Counted from the stretch's first letter, positions 2,997 through 50,539 are shown. The stretch: 50,539 nt of DNA from Abditibacteriota bacterium (GCA_017959625.1 JAGDAG010000202.1:1-50539), one strand, 5' to 3'. Program-made: numbers and translations. Notes: generated from the letters alone by a model not told the origin.

Positions 2997-3851
2997 TTAT
3001 TTGTCGAACCACGCCCTTCTCTCGGTGGAAAGGCGCATCTTTTCCTTCATCTTTTCGCTGTCTTCCGCTTCGAGGGCGTCCCGGAACTCCCGGAATTCCC
3101 CAAGGAACCTGTCCATCTTGTCAAGAAGCGGTTTTTTGTTCATAATAAAAAGCTCGCTCCACATATCCTCGTTTATACGGGCTATCCTGGTGAGGTCCCG
3201 GAAGGAATTGCCGGTATAGTCTGCCAGGTGCCTGTTTTCGCTGGCCGTCATAAGGGAAACGGCTATACAGTGGGTGAGCTGGGAAACGAAGGCTATCATT
3301 TCGTCATGCTCCTCCGGGGAAAGCACCGATATCTTCCGGCAGCCCAGGATACGACCCAGATCCTTGCACCACTCCACGGCCTTCCGGGTATTGGCCTTTG
3401 TGGGGGTCACTATATAGTTTGCGTTGCGGAAAATGCCGTCGTCGCTGTTTTCAACGCCGCTGACTTCCTTTCCGGCCATAGGATGGGCGGCAATGAATTC
3501 CACGTCCTTCCGCAGACACGCCTGCGCTTCGTAAACCACGCTGCTTTTTATACCGGTGACGTCGGTTATCATGGCGCCGGGCCGGAAAAGATGCTGCCAG
3601 CGTTTTATCCATTCGGGCAGAGTCCGGGGATACAGGCCGAAGATCACCGTGTCCGCAGAAGAGACCAGAGCCGGCTCCACTTCGGTGCTGCCTTCCTTTA
3701 TGATGCCCTTTTCCAAAGCGAAATCTATGGCCTCCCTGCGGGTATCGATGGCCGCCACGTGGCAGCCCAGACGGGAAAGAGCCATGGCGTAGCTGCCGCC
3801 CATGAGCCCGAGCCCGGTTATAAGTATGTTGCCTTTATTGATCCACTGCAT
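2997..3851 (-). CDS. tyrA: prephenate dehydrogenase
   Basis: 284 aa. Has an N-terminal Rossmann motif ILITGLGLMGGS and FIAAHPMAG. Its start overlaps the end of aroA by 17 nt. Confidence 0.85.
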   Translation of the reverse strand: MQWINKGNILITGLGLMGGSYAMALSRLGCHVAAIDTRREAIDFALEKGIIKEGSTEVEPALVSSADTVIFGLYPRTLPEWIKRWQHLFRPGAMITDVTGIKSSVVYEAQACLRKDVEFIAAHPMAGKEVSGVENSDDGIFRNANYIVTPTKANTRKAVEWCKDLGRILGCRKISVLSPEEHDEMIAFVSQLTHCIAVSLMTASENRHLADYTGNSFRDLTRIARINEDMWSELFIMNKKPLLDKMDRFLGEFREFRDALEAEDSEKMKEKMRLSTERRAWFDK

Positions 3852-27953: not shown

Positions 27954-29672
27954 TTAGAAGTTGACAGAAAGCTGACCTGCTACAAGGTGAGTCTTTTCCA
28001 GATCCTCATACTTGAGGTACTGATACATCATCTTGATCTTGGCGTTCTGTCCGACCTTGCGGTTCCAGCCAACGGTGATGGCGTCATCCTTGTAAACGTC
28101 CTTGGCCTGCTCGTATTCCACGAACACGTTGTCCAGAGCGCTCACGTCGTAGCTGATACCTGCCTTCATATACTTCATATCGTCGAAGAATATGGGCATA
28201 TTGTCGTCTTCAGGCTTGTAGTTCTTGTAAGTCCCGTAAACCTTGAAGGCGTCGGTGAAGTTGTAAGCAGCGTCAACGTAGAAGCCCTTGTAGTTGTCGC
28301 CGGCGTAGGTATCGAAGATCTTGTCCTGGATGGCAACGCCGTAGTAACCGGACTCAATGTTCTTGTAGCCGGCAGAAATGTCCAGCTTGTCGTTGGCAAA
28401 GCCCAGTTTGGCATCCCACATAGAAGCCTTGCTATAGCCCTTGTTGGGCTTGTACTGCATCCAGCCGCCGTCCACGTAGAACTGGCCGAAGGGAACGTAA
28501 AGGGTTGCGCCGTAGAATTCGGGCTTGTCAACCATCTTCTTGATCCGCTCGGGAGCAGCCATCTTGGTGTAAACAGCAGTGATGCGGGCATCGCCGAAGT
28601 TGAAGCCAACCTGGCCGCCGAGGTTAACGGAAACCTTTACAGGCTCGCCTTCAACACCGGTGAAGTAAGGCAGCTGCCAATCGTACCAGTCGTAAACAGG
28701 GCGGTTGCCCCAGAACTTTACGTCAACAGCGCCGAAGCTCTTGGCATACTCGTAACCTTCAACGGAGAAGTTTCCGTCATCCAGTCTGTCGATGTCGAAG
28801 TAGGAGCTTTCCTTATATCTCTTGAAGAGATAGTTGTTGATCTGGAAAGGCATGCGGCCGATCCGGATGTCGCCCCACTTCTCATCGGAAGAAACGGCAT
28901 ACATGTAGTAAGGAGTGATGTCGCTCAGGCTGCTGAAAGTCCTCTCGATGGTGTTGTTGTCAACGTTGAAGTTGTTCTTGTTGGCCCAGTCGCCCATCAC
29001 CAGGGTGGTGTAAAGATTGATCTTATCGTTTACTCTGCCCTTGATGTCCAGCTGAACGTCCTTGAAGAAGGACTGCTTTCTCTTGGCAAGATGCCAGATA
29101 TCGTTGTAACCGTCGATATCCATTGCGGGCTCGTCGCCGGAGATGACGTCTTTGACCATGAAGTTGGCGGCGCCGGTGATCTTTACGCGGGCCTGCTCAT
29201 CTTCCAGAGCGGCAACGCGGCTCTTCAGAGCGGCAACGTCGGCCTTCAGTACGTTTACGTCAACACCCAGAGCGGCCAGTTCGGAAGCGAACTCGTCGGC
29301 CAGAGCCTGGATCTTGTTCAGAGCGTCGGCAGTGGCAAGACCGGAAAGATCGGCCTCGGTGCCGGGCTTGTAGTCGTCCTTGAGCATATACTTGTCAAGG
29401 TCGGACTTTCTTGCGAAACCGCTTACGTCGGTCCCGTCCTCACCCAGGAAGGGGAGCAGACGGCAGAGAACCACCGCGAATTCGTAGCGGGTCATAGTTC
29501 TCTTTCCCTTGAACTCGCCGTCGGGATAACCGATCACGAGCCCCAGAGACTCGAGTTCGCTTACGGCATCATATGCCCAATGATCACGGGGAACATCGGA
29601 GAAGGTGCTCTGTGCGAACATAGGAGCAGCCAGCGCGAATACGATGGCTATTACCATAATTAACTTTTTCAT
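27954..29672 (-). CDS. outer-membrane porin with N-terminal SLH domain, coiled-coil linker and C-terminal beta-barrel (OmpM/Slp-like)
   Basis: Starts at the internal MKKLIMVIAIVFALAAPMFAQS signal peptide (ATG 29672, AAGAGGA upstream). SLH motif FSDVPRDHWAYDAVSELESLGLVIGYPDGEFKGKRTMTRYEF. Heptad-like segment ALNKIQALADEFASELAALGVDVNVLKADVAALKSRVAALEDE. Then alternating Tyr/Gly-rich beta strands ending in ...QLSVNF (terminal Phe). Confidence 0.85.
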   Translation of the reverse strand: MKKLIMVIAIVFALAAPMFAQSTFSDVPRDHWAYDAVSELESLGLVIGYPDGEFKGKRTMTRYEFAVVLCRLLPFLGEDGTDVSGFARKSDLDKYMLKDDYKPGTEADLSGLATADALNKIQALADEFASELAALGVDVNVLKADVAALKSRVAALEDEQARVKITGAANFMVKDVISGDEPAMDIDGYNDIWHLAKRKQSFFKDVQLDIKGRVNDKINLYTTLVMGDWANKNNFNVDNNTIERTFSSLSDITPYYMYAVSSDEKWGDIRIGRMPFQINNYLFKRYKESSYFDIDRLDDGNFSVEGYEYAKSFGAVDVKFWGNRPVYDWYDWQLPYFTGVEGEPVKVSVNLGGQVGFNFGDARITAVYTKMAAPERIKKMVDKPEFYGATLYVPFGQFYVDGGWMQYKPNKGYSKASMWDAKLGFANDKLDISAGYKNIESGYYGVAIQDKIFDTYAGDNYKGFYVDAAYNFTDAFKVYGTYKNYKPEDDNMPIFFDDMKYMKAGISYDVSALDNVFVEYEQAKDVYKDDAITVGWNRKVGQNAKIKMMYQYLKYEDLEKTHLVAGQLSVNF

Positions 29673-29859
29673 TTTTATCCTCTTGAGATTTTGCACTTTG
29701 TTTCCAAGAGAACGCAGTATCCTTGTTCCCTGCAGTTCCCGTCCGGAAACAGTTGTGTTTTGTTTTGGATTTTCGGCTTGACCCTGGGCACTCACAGCAT
29801 ACTCAAGAATAATATCACCCCCTTCTCGGCTGCGCCTTTGTTGAGGTCAATCCATTATG

Positions 29860-29888
29860 ATTATAAAACAAAACGGCCGGTATGTCAA
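29860..29888 (-). promoter_or_regulatory. consensus promoter of the porin gene (about 180-nt 5' UTR)
   Basis: The minus strand reads TTGACA (29888..29883), a 17-nt spacer, then TATAAT (29865..29860). An A/T tract immediately upstream (29889..29917) could be an UP element. Confidence 0.7.
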
Positions 29889-29917
29889 CTTTTTTTGAAA
29901 AAAAAGCGTTTTTTTTC

Positions 29918-30031
29918 TTTTCCACAGGCTCCTGCGAGGGATTTCACAAGGTTTTCCACAATATCAACAGCCTGCCGCAGCTTTTCCACAACTGTGAATA
30001 ACCCTGTGGATAACTCCCGCATTTTTCCACC
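29918..30031. promoter_or_regulatory. cluster of six DnaA-box-like 9-mers (candidate oriC or DnaA-binding regulatory locus)
   Basis: TTTTCCACA at 29918-29926, 29952-29960 and 29982-29990 (plus orientation). TGTGAATAA at 29993-30001 (= TTATTCACA, minus). TGTGGATAA at 30005-30013 (= perfect TTATCCACA, minus). TTTTCCACC at 30023-30031. All lie in non-coding DNA. Confidence 0.6.
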
Positions 30032-30073: not shown

Positions 30074-30104
30074 AAAACCGCGGCCCGGGGCGCCCGGTTT
30101 TTTT
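30074..30104 (+). terminator. orphan terminator-like GC hairpin with A4/T7 flanks
   Basis: AAAACCG-CGGC-CCGGGGC-GCC-CGGTTTTTTT. No annotated plus-strand gene ends here. It lies 8 nt upstream of the hrcA -35. Confidence 0.4.
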
Positions 30105-30111
30105 CCGCTTC

Positions 30112-30141
30112 TTGACAACAAAAAAACTTTTACTGTAAAAT
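30112..30141 (+). promoter_or_regulatory. hrcA promoter
   Basis: TTGACA (30112-30117), an 18-nt spacer, then TAAAAT (30136-30141). Confidence 0.6.
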
Positions 30142-30159
30142 AAAACTGTTCATGTTGAA

Positions 30160-31191
30160 TTGTTCGGGTACGGAAAAGTGAGCATTCTGTTAAAGGAAAG
30201 AAAAGCAAAAATACTTCAGCTGCTGGTCCAGGACTACATAGAGAACTGCGAGCCGGTAGGCAGCAAACGGATCGCGGAAAACTACGGCATAGAGGTCCGT
30301 TCCGCCACCATAAGGAACGAGATGGCCGAGCTTTCGGAAATGGGTCTCCTCACCCAGCCCCACAGGTCCGCCGGACGGATACCCTCCGAGCTGGGCTACA
30401 GGGTGTTCGTGGATTCCCTTATGGAACGCTGCAGCATGCCCTCCGAAGCCTCCCGCATCATAACCCGGGCCCTCAGGCAGAAAAACGAGATCGAGATGCT
30501 GGTCTCCGCCGCCTGCCGGGTGCTTTCGGAGCTGTGCGGCTACGCCGCCGCCGCCTGCTATCCCAGCATGAAAAACAGCTATATCAACTACATCTCCCTC
30601 GCGAGATACGGAGCAAAAAGGCTGCTCCTGGTGGCGGGCACCTCCGATTCCCTCATAATCCACAGGCTTTTGAACACGGAAAAGCCCCTTTTTTCCATGG
30701 ATTCCGCCATAAACTTTCTCACTTCGGTCTACAGGGGCAGGCTCGTTTCGGACATAGTTCAGATGTCCCCCGCCGAGGGCATGTTCGCTCCGGTCTCCGC
30801 CGAATTTCTGGAAGCGGTGAAAAGCGAGGGCAGAGACAAGAGAGACAGAAAATTTTATTACGAAGGCATAGGCAGGCTCCTCAGGCTCCCGGAATTCCGC
30901 AGCGTGGAGAACCTGGAAGCCCTGATAAACGTGCTGGAAAACGACTCCCTCATGGAAAAGATCACCGGCTTTGCCGAAAGCGCAGAGCCCGCGGTGCGCA
31001 TAGGCTCCGAAACGGGGATCCCCGCCCTTTCCGGATATTCCGTGGTCTCGGCGGGATACCGCCTTTCCGACAAGCCGGCGGGAGGCATAGCCGTCATCGG
31101 CCCCACCAGGATGGATTATTCCCGGTCCATAGCCGCCGCCGACCTTGTGAGGGAACAGCTGGAAATAATGCTCAACAGCATTCTGAAATAA
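30160..31191 (+). CDS. hrcA: heat-inducible transcriptional repressor HrcA
   Basis: Has an N-terminal winged-helix region (ILQLLVQDYIENCEPVGSKRIAE...RSATIRNEMAELSEMGLLTQPHRSAGRIPS). The track start is TTG 30160. GTG 30178 (VSILLKERKAK) is an equally plausible start. Confidence 0.88.
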   Translation: MFGYGKVSILLKERKAKILQLLVQDYIENCEPVGSKRIAENYGIEVRSATIRNEMAELSEMGLLTQPHRSAGRIPSELGYRVFVDSLMERCSMPSEASRIITRALRQKNEIEMLVSAACRVLSELCGYAAAACYPSMKNSYINYISLARYGAKRLLLVAGTSDSLIIHRLLNTEKPLFSMDSAINFLTSVYRGRLVSDIVQMSPAEGMFAPVSAEFLEAVKSEGRDKRDRKFYYEGIGRLLRLPEFRSVENLEALINVLENDSLMEKITGFAESAEPAVRIGSETGIPALSGYSVVSAGYRLSDKPAGGIAVIGPTRMDYSRSIAAADLVREQLEIMLNSILK

Positions 31192-33803: not shown

Positions 33804-34826
33804 TTATGCTTCCGTATTTTTTATGTTCCGCCAGCTTCTGTAAACCTGAAAAACGTTTTCGGGGGCGCTGTCGCCGAATTCGCACTGGCCGATGACGCCG
33901 CCCTTCTTATACAGGCGGCGGTAAACCTCTTTGACGGCCTTGTCTATATCCTCCGGGGTGCCGGTGCGCAGCAGGTGCTGCCGGTCTATCTCGCCGCAGA
34001 AGGTTATTTTGCCGGCGAAGGGCTCCAGGTTTTCCAGGCCCATGCAGAATATCTGGCTGTTGAGCATATCCAGCCCCAGCTCCACAAGGTCGGGATAGAT
34101 CTCCAGGATACAGCCGTCGGAGTGCATGAATATCTTTTTCCCGGCGGCGTGGGCTATGTCGATAAAGTTCTTGTATATGGGCTTGAAATACGCCCTCCAC
34201 AATTCCGGAGAGATCAGCAGGCTTTTCTGGGAGCCCCAGTCGTCCATGAACAGCAGGCAGTCCACGTCGGTTTTGGCCCACAGCTCCATGCACCTGTAGT
34301 AAAACGACGCCATTTCGTCCAGAAAGCTTTTCATGTTTTTGTCTTCGTCCATAAGGTCCATATACAGCTGGACCGTGCCTCTTATGAACTGCAGCTGCTC
34401 AAAGGGGCGGGGGCAGCAGCCCGCTTTGACGAACTTGTCGGTTTTGGCGCAGTCCCTGTTGATGGCGTCCGGGTCTATGGTGAGCCATTCCGTGGGGAAG
34501 TGCACTTTGGCCCTGTCGGCCTCCCAATCCCTGACCAGGGGGTCCTTGACCTCGCCTATGACTCCCGCCTGGATATTCTCGAAGATGCAGCCCCAGGAAT
34601 CCCGGAAGGAGCCTATGGCGTAGGGGTCCCCCCGGGCGTAGTCCGGCTCGGAGCAGTAGGGCGCCACGCCGGTGGTGTCAAAGTTGTCGTATTCCGCAAA
34701 AAGGGCTTCCACCTTGCCGGGATATTTTATCTGGGCGATGGGCAGATACCACAGCTCCAGGGGTATCCTGGCGGGGTCTTCAAAATTAAGGGTCTGATAG
34801 ACCAGTTCTCTCGATGTGGCCGGCAT
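33804..34826 (-). CDS. uroporphyrinogen decarboxylase (URO-D) family protein (paralog 2)
   Basis: 340 aa. Layout mirrors paralogs 1 and 3 ([28 protein letters not shown]). Confidence 0.78.
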
Positions 34827-38663: not shown

Positions 38664-39794
38664 ATGACAGGCAGACAAAGGATACTAAACACTCTGAGAG
38701 GACTTCCGACAGACAGGCCTCCCGTCAATTTTTATGAGATCGGAGGCTTCAACGTGGATCCCGGGGACCCATCTCCCTACAACGTTTACAACTCGCCGGA
38801 CTGGCAGCCTCTTCTCCGGCTTGCGGAAGAAAAAACCGACATTATGCGCTTCGGGATCGTCCGAAGGACCCCAAGATACCCGGAGATCCACCGCGAGCTG
38901 ATAACGTCCGTCAGCGAAGACACGGGAAAAAGCGTGATAACCAGGACCGTCTTCAACATAAAGGGCCATCCGCTCACCCGGACGGACCGCCGGGACGTTT
39001 CCGCGGACACCGTGTGGCACACGGAGCATCTGCTGAAATCGGAAGAGGATCTGGAGGCCTTTCTTTCCCTGCCCGACGAACTGTTCATGTATGATTACGA
39101 CGCTTCGCCCATGACGAAACAGGAAGAGGAGCTGGGAGACAGAGGCGTAGTTATGGCAGACGGAGCCGACGCCCTGGCAGAAGCGGCAGTGCTGTTTTCC
39201 ATGGAGGATTACACCGTGCTGGCCCTGACCCGTCCCGAAACCTTCAGAAGGCTTCTGGACAAGCTTCAGCCCTTTCAGCTTGAAAGATATTCCGCTATTG
39301 CCGCCCAGAGGCCGGATACCGTGTGGCGGCTCTGCGGCCCGGAATACGCCGCCCCTCCCTACCTTCCGCCGAAACTCTTCCGGGAGTTCGTAGTGCCCTA
39401 TGACAAGCCTCTCACAGACGTCATACACCGCTCGGGGGGGCTCTGCAGGCTCCACTGCCACGGCAGGATAAAAGAAGTCATTCCGTATATCCTGGAGCTG
39501 GAGCCCGACGGCATCGACCCGGTGGAACCTCCCGGACAGGGAGACGTGACCCTGAAGGAAGCGGGAGAGCTGCTGGGGGACGGAGTGGCTCTTTTCGGAA
39601 ATATAGAAGCCAGCGATATAGAGACCCTGCAGCCGCCGGAATTCGAAAAAAAGGTGCTCACGGCCGTCCGGGAAGGAACGGACAGAAAAGGAGGCTTCTG
39701 CCTGCAGCCCTCCGCCTCTCCCTACGGCAGGAACATCCCGCCGCGGGTCCTTGAAAACTATCATATAATGCTGCGGGGTGTGGGAGCGGAATAG
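38664..39794 (+). CDS. uroporphyrinogen decarboxylase (URO-D) family protein (paralog 3)
   Basis: 376 aa. Contains LHCHGRIKEV, DGIDPVEPP and FGNIE, with the same domain order as paralogs 1 and 2. Confidence 0.75.
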   Translation: MTGRQRILNTLRGLPTDRPPVNFYEIGGFNVDPGDPSPYNVYNSPDWQPLLRLAEEKTDIMRFGIVRRTPRYPEIHRELITSVSEDTGKSVITRTVFNIKGHPLTRTDRRDVSADTVWHTEHLLKSEEDLEAFLSLPDELFMYDYDASPMTKQEEELGDRGVVMADGADALAEAAVLFSMEDYTVLALTRPETFRRLLDKLQPFQLERYSAIAAQRPDTVWRLCGPEYAAPPYLPPKLFREFVVPYDKPLTDVIHRSGGLCRLHCHGRIKEVIPYILELEPDGIDPVEPPGQGDVTLKEAGELLGDGVALFGNIEASDIETLQPPEFEKKVLTAVREGTDRKGGFCLQPSASPYGRNIPPRVLENYHIMLRGVGAE

Positions 39795-48419: not shown

Positions 48420-48429
48420 ACGCCGCCTC

Positions 48430-48445
48430 CGTTTCACGTGAAACA
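48430..48445. promoter_or_regulatory. second parS site, in the 5' leader of the 48419 lipoprotein gene
   Basis: CGTTTCACGTGAAACA has the same 14-nt palindrome core (48431-48444) as the site in parB. Confidence 0.8.
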
Positions 48446-48469
48446 TTTGGGGCACGACGCCCCGCGTAT

Positions 48470-48478
48470 ATTGTAGCA
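48470..48478 (-). promoter_or_regulatory. extended -10 element (TGCTACAAT) for the 48419 lipoprotein gene
   Basis: The minus strand reads TGCTACAAT. This would place parS at roughly +18 to +33 of the transcript. Confidence 0.45.
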
Positions 48479-48511
48479 TCCCGAGAAAACAAATACAACA
48501 TATTTTTCCTC

Positions 48512-48541
48512 TTGCAATAGATATGAGATAAACAGTATAAT
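48512..48541 (+). promoter_or_regulatory. promoter of the Gfo/Idh/MocA gene
   Basis: TTGCAA (48512-48517), an 18-nt spacer, then TATAAT (48536-48541). AAGGAG lies 6 nt before ATG 48592. Confidence 0.55.
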
Positions 48542-48591
48542 AAAGAGGGCGAAAGGCCCACACACGCGGAACGCGATCCCAAGGAGTCTCT

Positions 48592-49625
48592 ATGAAAAAA
48601 TTCAACATAGGGGTGATAGGCTGCGGATACATAGCCAAAAAAGCCCATTTTCCGAACATAGCATCCAAATACAACCTTTGCGCCGTGTCCGACACGGACC
48701 TGAGCAGGGCGGAGGCGGTAAAAAAAGAATACGGAGCCGAATACGTTTTTGACGATTATAAAAAGCTGCTGGCCCTGAAAGAGCTCGACGCAGTGCATAT
48801 CTGCGCTCCGAATTATCTCCACGCCCCCATAGCTCTGGAAGCTCTGGAGGCCGGAAAGCACGTGCTGGTGGAAAAGCCAGTCGCCACCACTGTAAAAGAC
48901 GCCGAGGCCATATACCGGAAAGCCCGGGAGAAAAAGCTGAAGGCCATGTCCGCCAACTGCTTCAGATACCTTACAGAGTGGAGCATACTGAAATCCTTTA
49001 TAGACAGCGGGCGGCTGGGAGAGATATATTACGTCAACGTCAAGGCCATGAGAAGGCGGGGGATACCTCCCCACGGCGTGTTTACCAACAAGGCGCTGCA
49101 GGGCGGGGGGCCTCTTATAGACATAGGGGTCCATCAGCTGGATCTGGCGGTATATCTTCTGGGAATCCGAGACCGGCGAGGGTCACGGGGCAGATCTGGA
49201 CAAAGATCGGCAACACCCCCGGCCACGCCTGGGCCGAGCGGGGCCCCTGGGACCATGAGAATTATGATATAGAAGACCTGGCCTGCGGTTTCGTGCATTT
49301 TGACAACGGAGTGGTGATGAACGTGGAGGCATCCTTTGCGGCAAACATCAAAGAGGATATATTCCGGGTAAGCCTTATGGGGACCAGGGGCGGAGCAGAC
49401 AGCAAGCCTCTCGCCGTCTGGACCGAAGACTGCGGCGTACTGCTGGACGCCGTCCCCCATTACGTTCCCGTCACCAATTTCTACGCCGCGGAGATAGACG
49501 GCTTCTACAAGGCGGTGGAGGAAGACACGGAGGTGCCCGTCAAGCCCGAAGAAAGCGTGAACGTGCTGAAGATAATCGAAGGTATCTACGAATCCTCCCG
49601 CCAGGGGAAGGAGATACTGCTTTAA
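48592..49625 (+). pseudogene. Gfo/Idh/MocA family oxidoreductase interrupted by a 1-nt frameshift
   Basis: Frame 1 (48592..) gives the Rossmann half: NIGVIGCGYIAKK...EKPVA...GGGPLIDIGVHQLDLAVYLLG. The homologous C-terminal half continues in another frame (NPRPARVTGQIW...FHFDNG-like...IIEGIYESSRQGKEILL, ending 49625). The switch lies at about 49161-49166 (CTGGGAATCCG). One extra A (GGA AAT CCG) would restore a single ~344-aa frame. Confidence 0.75.
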
Positions 49626-49763: not shown

Positions 49764-49792
49764 AGTTATGTAACGCAACAAGGAGAAACCAT

Positions 49793-50539
49793 ATGGAAAC
49801 AGAATCCGGCAAAACACCCTTCGTCCACCTTCACATGCACTCGGAATACTCCATTCTTGACGGTCTTTCGGGAATAGATTCCATGGTAGAAAGAGTGAAG
49901 GCTCTGGGCATACCTGCCGCCGCCCTCACCGACCACGGAGTGATGTACGGGAACCTGGCCTTTTACGACGCCTGCAACAAAGCGGGGATAAAGCCCCTGC
50001 TGGGCTGCGAGATATACGTTGCCCCCCGTTCCATGGAACAGAAGGAAAGGGGCATAGACGACAAAAACTATCACCTGGTGCTGCTGGCAAAAAACGAAAA
50101 GGGGTACCGGAATCTGGTCAAGCTGGTGTCCAGAGCATATATATCGGGTTTTTATTACAAGCCCAGGGCAGACAAGACCCTCCTGAAGACCTACAGCGAG
50201 GGGCTCATCGCCCTGTCTGCCTGCCTGGGAGGCGAGATACCTCAGATGATACTGTCGGGAAATATGGACGCCGCCCGGCAGGCTGTCGGCGAGTATGCCG
50301 ATATTTTCGGAAAAGACGATTTTTATCTGGAGGTTCAGGACCACGGGATCCCCGAAGAAAGGCTGGTTGCAGAGGCTGTTCAGAAGCTTGCGGACGAAAC
50401 CGGACTGAAGGCAGTCTGCACCAACGACAGCCATTATACACTGCGGGAGGACAGCGACGCCCACGACACTCTTATCTGCATTCAAACCAAAAAAATGAAA
50501 TCCGACCCGGACCGTATGAAATATGAACCGGAAAAATAC
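49793..50539 (+). CDS. dnaE: DNA polymerase III alpha subunit, N-terminal PHP domain (3' end runs off the window)
   Basis: My translation from ATG 49793 gives METESGKTPFVHLHMHSEYSILDGLSGIDSMVERVKALGIPAAALTDHGVMYGNLAFYDACNKAGIKPLLGCEIYVAP...HLVLLAKNEKGYRNL. The frame is open to the end of the window, so it is not in the track. Track ORF 49766..50485(-) is its antisense shadow. Confidence 0.92.
   Translation, partial: METESGKTPFVHLHMHSEYSILDGLSGIDSMVERVKALGIPAAALTDHGVMYGNLAFYDACNKAGIKPLLGCEIYVAPRSMEQKERGIDDKNYHLVLLAKNEKGYRNLVKLVSRAYISGFYYKPRADKTLLKTYSEGLIALSACLGGEIPQMILSGNMDAARQAVGEYADIFGKDDFYLEVQDHGIPEERLVAEAVQKLADETGLKAVCTNDSHYTLREDSDAHDTLICIQTKKMKSDPDRMKYEPEKY

Follow-up and report, generated by a model that had tools for sequence, protein, structure and literature searches.

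A conserved cluster of DnaA boxes between the divergent porin and hrcA promoters of an Abditibacteriota bacterium, probably a DnaA assembly site outside the origin

Is the dense group of DnaA-box-like sequences that lies between a porin gene and hrcA in this stretch of DNA the place where the chromosome starts to replicate, or does it bind DnaA for some other purpose? To our knowledge, neither a replication origin nor a DnaA control element has been defined for the Abditibacteriota/Armatimonadota. The initial annotation of the locus put forward a candidate oriC, with a datA- or DBC-like titration site, or DnaA-dependent control of the flanking promoters, as the alternative. The window analysed here (50,539 nucleotides from an Abditibacteriota bacterium, GCA_017959625.1, JAGDAG010000202.1) is an entire contig, so that the whole-contig skew test suggested in that annotation was feasible.

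The box array and its surroundings

The six DnaA-box-like 9-mers that had been described within 114 bp are all present (five of them fit TTWTNCACA and one is weaker; Table 1), and TTTTCCACA does occur three times in direct orientation with spacings of 34 and 30 nt. Two weak boxes that had been overlooked, GATTTCACA and ATATCAACA, lie among them, which brings the content of these 114 bp of intergenic DNA to five boxes at no more than 1 mismatch plus three weaker ones, as would be looked for in an oriC or a DBC. The boxes are ordered as a rightward-reading TTWTNCACA array (29918-29990) that meets a leftward-reading one (29993-30013), and they fill the 223-bp spacer separating the -35 hexamers of the porin and hrcA promoters. 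Sigma-70 promoters were found on both sides (12/12 and 11/12), which agrees with the earlier placement of the cluster between divergent porin and hrcA promoters.

Table 1. Coordinates of the boxes, promoters, flanking genes and other features of the window
Feature	Position	Strand	Basis and remarks
SLH-domain outer-membrane porin gene (OmpM-like), left flank	27954..29672	-	Pfam SLH, residues 23-66, E=1.2e-11
Porin 5' leader, ~180 nt, with blocks invariant in four species	29673..29853	-	Alignments
Porin promoter, TTGACA (29888-29883), 17 nt, TATAAT (29865-29860)	29860..29888	-	Promoter scan, sigma-70 12/12
A/T tract, T7-G-A8-GCG-T8-C	29889..29917	.	Sequence; directly upstream of porin -35, at the position of an UP element
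DnaA box 1, TTTTCCACA	29918..29926	+	Sequence, box scan
Weak DnaA-box-like site, GATTTCACA	29940..29948	+	Read from sequence; 2 mismatches to TTWTNCACA; box 2 begins 3 bp on
DnaA box 2, TTTTCCACA	29952..29960	+	Sequence, box scan
Weak box, ATATCAACA	29961..29969	+	Box scan, 2 mismatches; directly abuts box 2
Three-box core (boxes 3, 4 and 5), TTTTCCACA(+)-AC-TGTGAATAA(-)-CCC-TGTGGATAA(-)	29982..30013	.	Three-species alignment, triad scan
Box 3, TTTTCCACA	from 29982	+	Sequence
Box 4, TTATTCACA	29993-30001	-	Sequence
Box 5, perfect TTATCCACA	30005-30013	-	Sequence
Weak box 6, TTTTCCACC	30023..30031	+	Box scan; not kept in relatives
Terminator-like hairpin, CCGGGGCGCCCGG then T7	30085..30104	+	Promoter/sequence scan; window species only
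hrcA promoter, TTGACA, 18 nt, TAAAAT	30112..30141	+	Promoter scan, 11/12; kept in L002 and L007
hrcA, GTG start at 30178, right flank	30178..31191	+	Pfam HrcA, HrcA_DNA-bdg
Two parS sites	44854 and 48430		Second site at the gene-strand switch
dnaE 5' end, running off the contig	49793-50539	+	Fragment annotated 'partial' on the same contig

The 50.5-kb contig has 10 copies of TTWTNCACA, compared with 1.67 +/- 1.21 (maximum 5) in dinucleotide shuffles, and half of its copies (5/10) fall inside 96 bp. The best 150-bp segment holds five boxes at no more than 1 mismatch to TTATCCACA and seven at no more than 2 mismatches, the corresponding maxima in 100 shuffles being two and five. This DnaA-box cluster is thus real, unique in the contig and far above chance. 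Its boxes are not misread CIRCE elements (the operators of HrcA), a candidate that was ruled out since the contig holds no CIRCE at up to 3 mismatches.

The wider neighbourhood is also as first described: holA, parA-parB, two parS sites and dnaE were all recovered, and dnaA and dnaN are indeed missing from the window. The parS sites lie 14.8 and 18.4 kb from the cluster, with parAB and dnaE on the same contig, an ori-proximal setting of the type known for DBCs and datA. Of the 26 genes that lie left of the cluster, 25 are minus-stranded. To the right, hrcA (whose product is a 100% match to P0001, a 337-aa NCBI protein of a MAG named 'Abditibacteriota bacterium') is followed by a plus-strand gene for a xylose-isomerase-like TIM-barrel protein, and not by grpE-dnaK-dnaJ; beyond this gene comes a long minus-strand run that includes holA, argS, rdgB, rph, trx, galK, parB and parA.

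Some observations on the right-hand part of the contig can be recorded in their own right. Directly upstream of parA, a minus-strand gene (46521-~48420) encodes a secreted-type protein of ~620-650 aa with a signal-peptide-like N-terminus, which is also found upstream of parA in three relatives and has no Pfam or NCBIfam match. The gene of a Gfo/Idh/MocA oxidoreductase (48592-49625, plus strand) is split over two frames (48592-49272 and 48978-49625); in a same-species contig of another assembly it is intact (344 aa), and by this comparison the split is read as a frameshift or an assembly error. An ORF call at 49766-50485 on the minus strand was rejected as spurious, the region being the 5' end of dnaE on the plus strand. 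Finally, there are two paralogues of the uroporphyrinogen-decarboxylase (URO-D) family, at 33804-34826 (minus strand) and 38664-39794 (plus strand), each of which matched the family weakly and only in part (E about 1e-12 to 1e-13). The gene hemE is a classical neighbour of oriC in alpha-proteobacteria; the nearness of the URO-D genes to the cluster is probably coincidental.

Conservation of the boxes and of a three-box core

The region was compared with that of L002 and L007 (HrcA 75% and 72% identical, respectively, to that of the window; L007 was located via a 21-mer from the porin leader), of L004, which is the same species in another assembly and is identical in the region, and of L006, whose contig stops at the porin -35. 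The porin-hrcA arrangement is common to all four. The porin gene, which starts with an ATG at 29672 preceded by GAGGA, is present in the relatives, and its promoter is kept in L002 (TTGACA-17-TACAAT), L007 and L006. In the porin leader, RNAalifold pairs an upstream UUCUUGAG with CUCAAGAG, which overlaps the Shine-Dalgarno sequence; the fold is without covariation support since every pair is invariant, and a search of the leader against Rfam returned no family match. It is possible, going by this predicted fold, that the leader acts as a translation-controlling or stabilising element. For the porin-hrcA spacer, Rfam gave only a sub-threshold, spurious match to a lncRNA. The terminator-like hairpin of the window follows the box cluster and precedes the hrcA -35; there is no plus-strand gene upstream that it could terminate, and it is absent from L002 and L007.

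Each of three species (that of the window, L002 and L007) holds 7-9 boxes, forward on the porin side and reverse on the hrcA side. In L002, the plus strand carries CTGTCCACA, TTATCCACA and TTATCCACA, and the minus strand TTGTCCACA, TTTTCCACA, TTATGCACA and CTGTCCACA; in L007, the boxes are TTGTCCACA, TTGTCCACA, GTATCCACA and CTGTCCACA on the plus strand, and TTATCCACA, TTTTCCACA and CTGTCCACA on the minus strand. The spacers between boxes are essentially unalignable among the three species, and the sole long invariant block in the three-way alignment of the inter-promoter region is CTGTG.A.AACCCTGTGGA.AA, which comprises boxes 4 and 5 with their CCC spacer, in addition to the TCCACA cores. As spacers have diverged while boxes were kept, selection acts on the boxes and on their geometry. 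No such cluster is found upstream of hrcA in L003 (HrcA 47% identical) or in the actinomycete L001, so that the cluster is specific to a narrow clade and its function would be lineage-restricted. When genome contigs were searched with HrcA, the sole match was an unrelated actinomycete locus (29% identity).

The pooled boxes give the motif yTnTCCACA, and judged by its letters this motif is a DnaA box. Position 3 is variable (A/T/G) and CTGTCCACA variants occur, and one might therefore see in the boxes the sites of another protein, for example a lineage-specific porin regulator, whose likeness to DnaA boxes would be coincidental. Such a coincidence appears extremely improbable to us, as it would have to account for perfect copies of TTATCCACA in every species, for variants that all stay within the known degeneracy of DnaA boxes (TTWTNCACA, and TTGTCCACA in GC-rich genomes), and for a 3-bp tandem spacing that is typical of cooperative DnaA sites (DARS II-III, BUS box pairs).

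The three-box core has the same geometry in the three species, namely box(+), 2-3 bp, box(-), 3 bp (CCC), box(-). It reads TTTTCCACA-AC-TGTGAATAA-CCC-TGTGGATAA in the window (I-II gap 2 bp), TTATCCACA-TAC-TGTGGACAA-CCC-TGTGGAAAA in L002 (3 bp) and CTGTCCACA-CC-TGTGGATAA-CCC-TGTGGAAAA in L007 (2 bp), the II-III gap being 3 bp in each. A scan for this triad returned exactly one match per locus (29982-30013 in the window, L002, L007, and the DARS1 and DARS2 controls), while 100 shuffled versions of the window gave no match. The two E. coli cores, taken straight from the MG1655 sequence and checked against PMC6868365, are TTATCCACT-N5-TGTGGATAA-CCA-TGTGTATTA for DARS1 and TTATTCACC-N5-TGTGGATAG-N3-TGTGAAGAA for DARS2, both with a I-II gap of 5 bp and a II-III gap of 3 bp. 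The present core shares with E. coli DARS (Fujimitsu 2009; Sugiyama 2019, PMC6868365) a box I oriented against boxes II and III, a 3-bp gap between II and III, and one box that matches the consensus perfectly. Unlike E. coli DARS, the core has a I-II gap of 2-3 bp and not the 5 bp found in both of them, which puts these boxes in another helical phase, and it is embedded in a larger box array.

A second triad, TTATCCACA-GGC-TTATAAACA-GT-TGTGAACAA, was found at 3083-3114 of the relative L011 (ParA 80% identical), in a spacer of 171 bp and 33% GC between the dnaE stop and an ABC-transporter operon, which corresponds to DNA just past the right end of the window. This second locus (3040-3170) has a further TTGTCCACA 37 bp from the triad and flanking stretches of 85% AT or more, and the terminator hairpin of dnaE falls inside it. 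With the triad module at a second locus, two or more ori-proximal DnaA sites built on it seem to exist in the lineage; E. coli likewise has two DARS loci. By analogy, the module might be a DARS-like DnaA-remodelling element outside the Proteobacteria, its copies (at least two, both ori-proximal) mirroring DARS1 and DARS2: DnaA molecules bound head-to-head on the first two boxes, stabilised by a molecule on the tandem third, would then undergo a change of nucleotide or oligomeric state. We regard this as a very doubtful proposal. DARS have been recognised only in beta/gamma-proteobacteria close to E. coli, which have IHF and Fis (PMC5742627).

The cluster as a candidate origin

If the cluster were the chromosomal oriC, it would be an origin unlinked to dnaA, in which the converging arrays would fill with DnaA, divergent transcription would supply negative supercoiling and a flanking A/T-rich promoter stretch would unwind. 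The contig has no denser box cluster, three species keep this one, and the presence of parS, parAB and dnaE makes the neighbourhood an ori-proximal one, all of which would suit an origin. The missing dnaA does not weigh heavily on this proposal. In the genome of Fimbriimonas (Armatimonadetes), the only complete genome of the phylum discussed in PMC4072686, dnaA, dnaN, recF and gyrB lie apart from one another, the skew is described as 'jagged' and no origin was pinpointed; with dnaA unclustered and skew unreliable in the Armatimonadetes, the absence of dnaA and of a skew flip from the window is weak evidence.

The cumulative GC skew, which had been proposed as a check on the origin, falls monotonically over the contig and has no minimum at 29.9-30.0 kb. 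For minus-strand genes, GC3 skew is equal on either side of the cluster (-0.065 to the left vs -0.067 to the right), with no flip. GC skew is dominated by the coding strand in this contig, the replication component of GC3 skew being about -0.015 (from genes on both strands), and the negative result counts as weak evidence against oriC.

Gene orientation agrees with the caveat, entered at the outset, that there is no clean strand switch. Forks leaving from 29.9 kb would be co-oriented with 25 of the 26 genes to the left. Among the 20 gene calls to the right, only 5 would be co-oriented (two of these five being the two frames of the one oxidoreductase gene) and the other 15 head-on. Rightward, hrcA and a single further gene diverge from the cluster before 15 minus-strand genes follow (32.1-48.4 kb). 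A gene-strand switch is found at ~48.4 kb (48420-48592), with minus-strand genes to its left and the oxidoreductase gene and dnaE (and the ABC transporter in relatives) to its right. The near-perfect parS CGTTTCACGTGAAACA (48430-48445) lies in this switch region, and the arrangement is the same in L011; no DnaA boxes were found in 48420-48592. Walking from parA and dnaE did not lead to dnaA: relatives of ParA showed the strand switch and dnaE only, a ParA match in a 3-Mb Armatimonadota genome gave only unrelated 20-kb neighbourhoods, none with dnaA, and a search with the DnaE fragment returned only partial PHP-domain proteins of other phyla.

The A/T tract beside box 1 had been described as nearly pure and compared with a DNA-unwinding element. 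The tract is real, but it is 80% A+T, with 6 G/C in 30 nt; it adjoins the -35 of a 12/12 porin promoter, as expected from the accompanying warning that an UP element would sit there, and its length is not kept (it is only ~20 nt in L002). An unwinding role is contradicted by its placement 5' of a TTTTCCACA-oriented box, which is opposite to the geometry of E. coli R1 and of the B. subtilis BUS. Across the window, an AT content of 80% or more over 40 nt is reached in five stretches, two of which (29881-29921 and 30117-30161) flank the cluster and could be counted in favour of an origin; inter-promoter GC is 49-60%, and no conserved, correctly oriented A/T-rich DUE adjoins a box. The arrays of E. 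coli oriC run outward from its centre, with R1 turned towards the DUE, whereas those of the present cluster converge.

The BUS was sought by published rules (PMC8287927), which allow a box up to 2 mismatches and a spacer of 0-16 bp, and which require three or more NAN trios on the 3' side of a TTATCCACA-oriented box; the strand rule was set from the R1/13-mer region of E. coli. The best run of DnaA-trios was 2 in the window and in L002, while the R1 control was detected (3); L007 has one T-run of 3 trios, which is at chance level, and no BUS element was found in any of the three species. The 50 nt that extend in the BUS direction from each box are 36-56% A+T. About 15% of predicted origins are without BUS under the published program. 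The cluster does share with BUS origins (Richardson 2016; Pelliciari 2021, PMC8287927) a tandem pair with a 3-bp gap and the better box upstream (TTATCCACA-GGG-TTATTCACA, minus strand); it differs from them in that this pair is followed by an opposite box, and in having no GC spacer, DnaA-trios or A/T-rich DUE and no skew or strand switch.

The oriC reading, which had headed the initial annotation, therefore failed every test that could be run here (skew, strand switch, A/T tract and trios), and we consider it distinctly unlikely that the cluster is the chromosomal oriC. The second locus past dnaE in L011 is more A/T-rich and hence a somewhat better origin candidate; there was no clear run of DnaA-trios in that locus either. 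From its boxes and composition, it could be a rival origin candidate or a second site of DnaA control.

DnaA binding outside the origin

What stands of the first interpretation is the identity of the DnaA boxes and the ori-proximal neighbourhood, both strengthened by two further species, and not the oriC itself; with the origin tests negative, the datA/DBC-like titration site or DnaA-dependent promoter control that had been offered as the alternative, together with the three caveats, becomes its better-supported part. We favour, with a probability of about 0.6, a conserved, origin-proximal, non-origin DnaA assembly site, of the class to which B. subtilis DBCs, E. coli datA and DARS belong, which may also tune both flanking promoters. 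The term 'non-origin' rests on negative results, since dnaA and the true origin were not located.

At such an assembly site, domain IV of DnaA would bind the strong boxes and the weaker neighbours would be filled cooperatively, so that ~6-9 DnaA protomers could be held in the spacer between the two -35 hexamers. The cluster has parS and parAB within ~15-20 kb and would accordingly be copied early after initiation, and an early-duplicated site could buffer or remodel free DnaA. The sequence shows the identity, density, conservation and geometry of the boxes, the promoters and the neighbourhood, and from these we infer the occupancy by DnaA, its titration or remodelling, and any effect on transcription.

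There are six non-origin DBCs in B. subtilis, which are intergenic, mostly ori-proximal, regulate their neighbours and together restrain initiation (PMC3245932). Like these many-box clusters, which are mostly near oriC and have neighbours that differ between species, the present cluster is intergenic. It differs from them in belonging to another phylum, in being flanked by genes for an SLH porin and HrcA, and in the way its arrays run together at a strictly conserved three-box core. For active DBCs, no structural feature that sets them apart has been recognised (PMC3245932). The E. coli datA locus consists of ~5 high-affinity DnaA boxes outside oriC, in the origin-proximal part of the chromosome, and lowers the initiation potential (PMC3245932). 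The present cluster resembles it in its group of about five strong boxes and in its ori-proximal position. An IHF site is needed by datA, which acts by stimulating the hydrolysis of DnaA-ATP. No IHF-like site was recognised by eye at the cluster, whereas datA has one.

The position of the boxes between two conserved, consensus-like divergent promoters could also point to a purely transcriptional operator, through which DnaA would couple expression of the major SLH porin and/or of HrcA, the heat-shock repressor, to replication status without any role in initiation. One box lies 16 (L002) and 9 nt (L007) upstream of the hrcA -35, and box 1 of the window abuts the porin UP tract. Regulation by DnaA is documented for genes beside DBCs in B. 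subtilis (PMC3245932) and for gidAB-parAB in P. aeruginosa (PMC13438810). Pure transcriptional control is a reasonable rival on these grounds, if still an unlikely one. Classical repression is unlikely as the boxes leave both -35s, both -10s and the transcribed regions free, and a promoter would need far fewer than six to nine sites. Furthermore, conservation is strongest in the central triad, ~95-160 bp from either -35, and not in the promoter-proximal boxes; the triad recurs in the dnaE 3' region, in a different gene context; and there is no obvious physiological link of DnaA with the porin or with hrcA. Regulation of the promoters would equally be compatible with an assembly site: the boxes occupy positions of about -55 to -175 relative to the two promoters, upstream of each, and overlap neither hexamer of either, so that a bound complex could modulate both, by activation or architecture rather than by occlusion. 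The same layout would fit a cluster that leaves transcription unaffected.

DnaA-box clusters outside origins are well known, and what is new in this one is the unstudied phylum and the gene context. On present evidence, the cluster adds a solid if unsurprising case to a known class, the most exciting reading, oriC, being the less likely one. The conserved, dense array nevertheless provides a concrete and testable target of DnaA in a phylum with scattered dnaA and uninformative skew (PMC4072686). Should the array turn out not to be the origin, ori-proximal secondary DnaA-box clusters, as found in Firmicutes, Actinobacteria and E. coli, would appear to be a more general bacterial strategy, and if the head-to-head three-box core is functional, DnaA remodelling of the DARS type would extend far beyond the proteobacteria.
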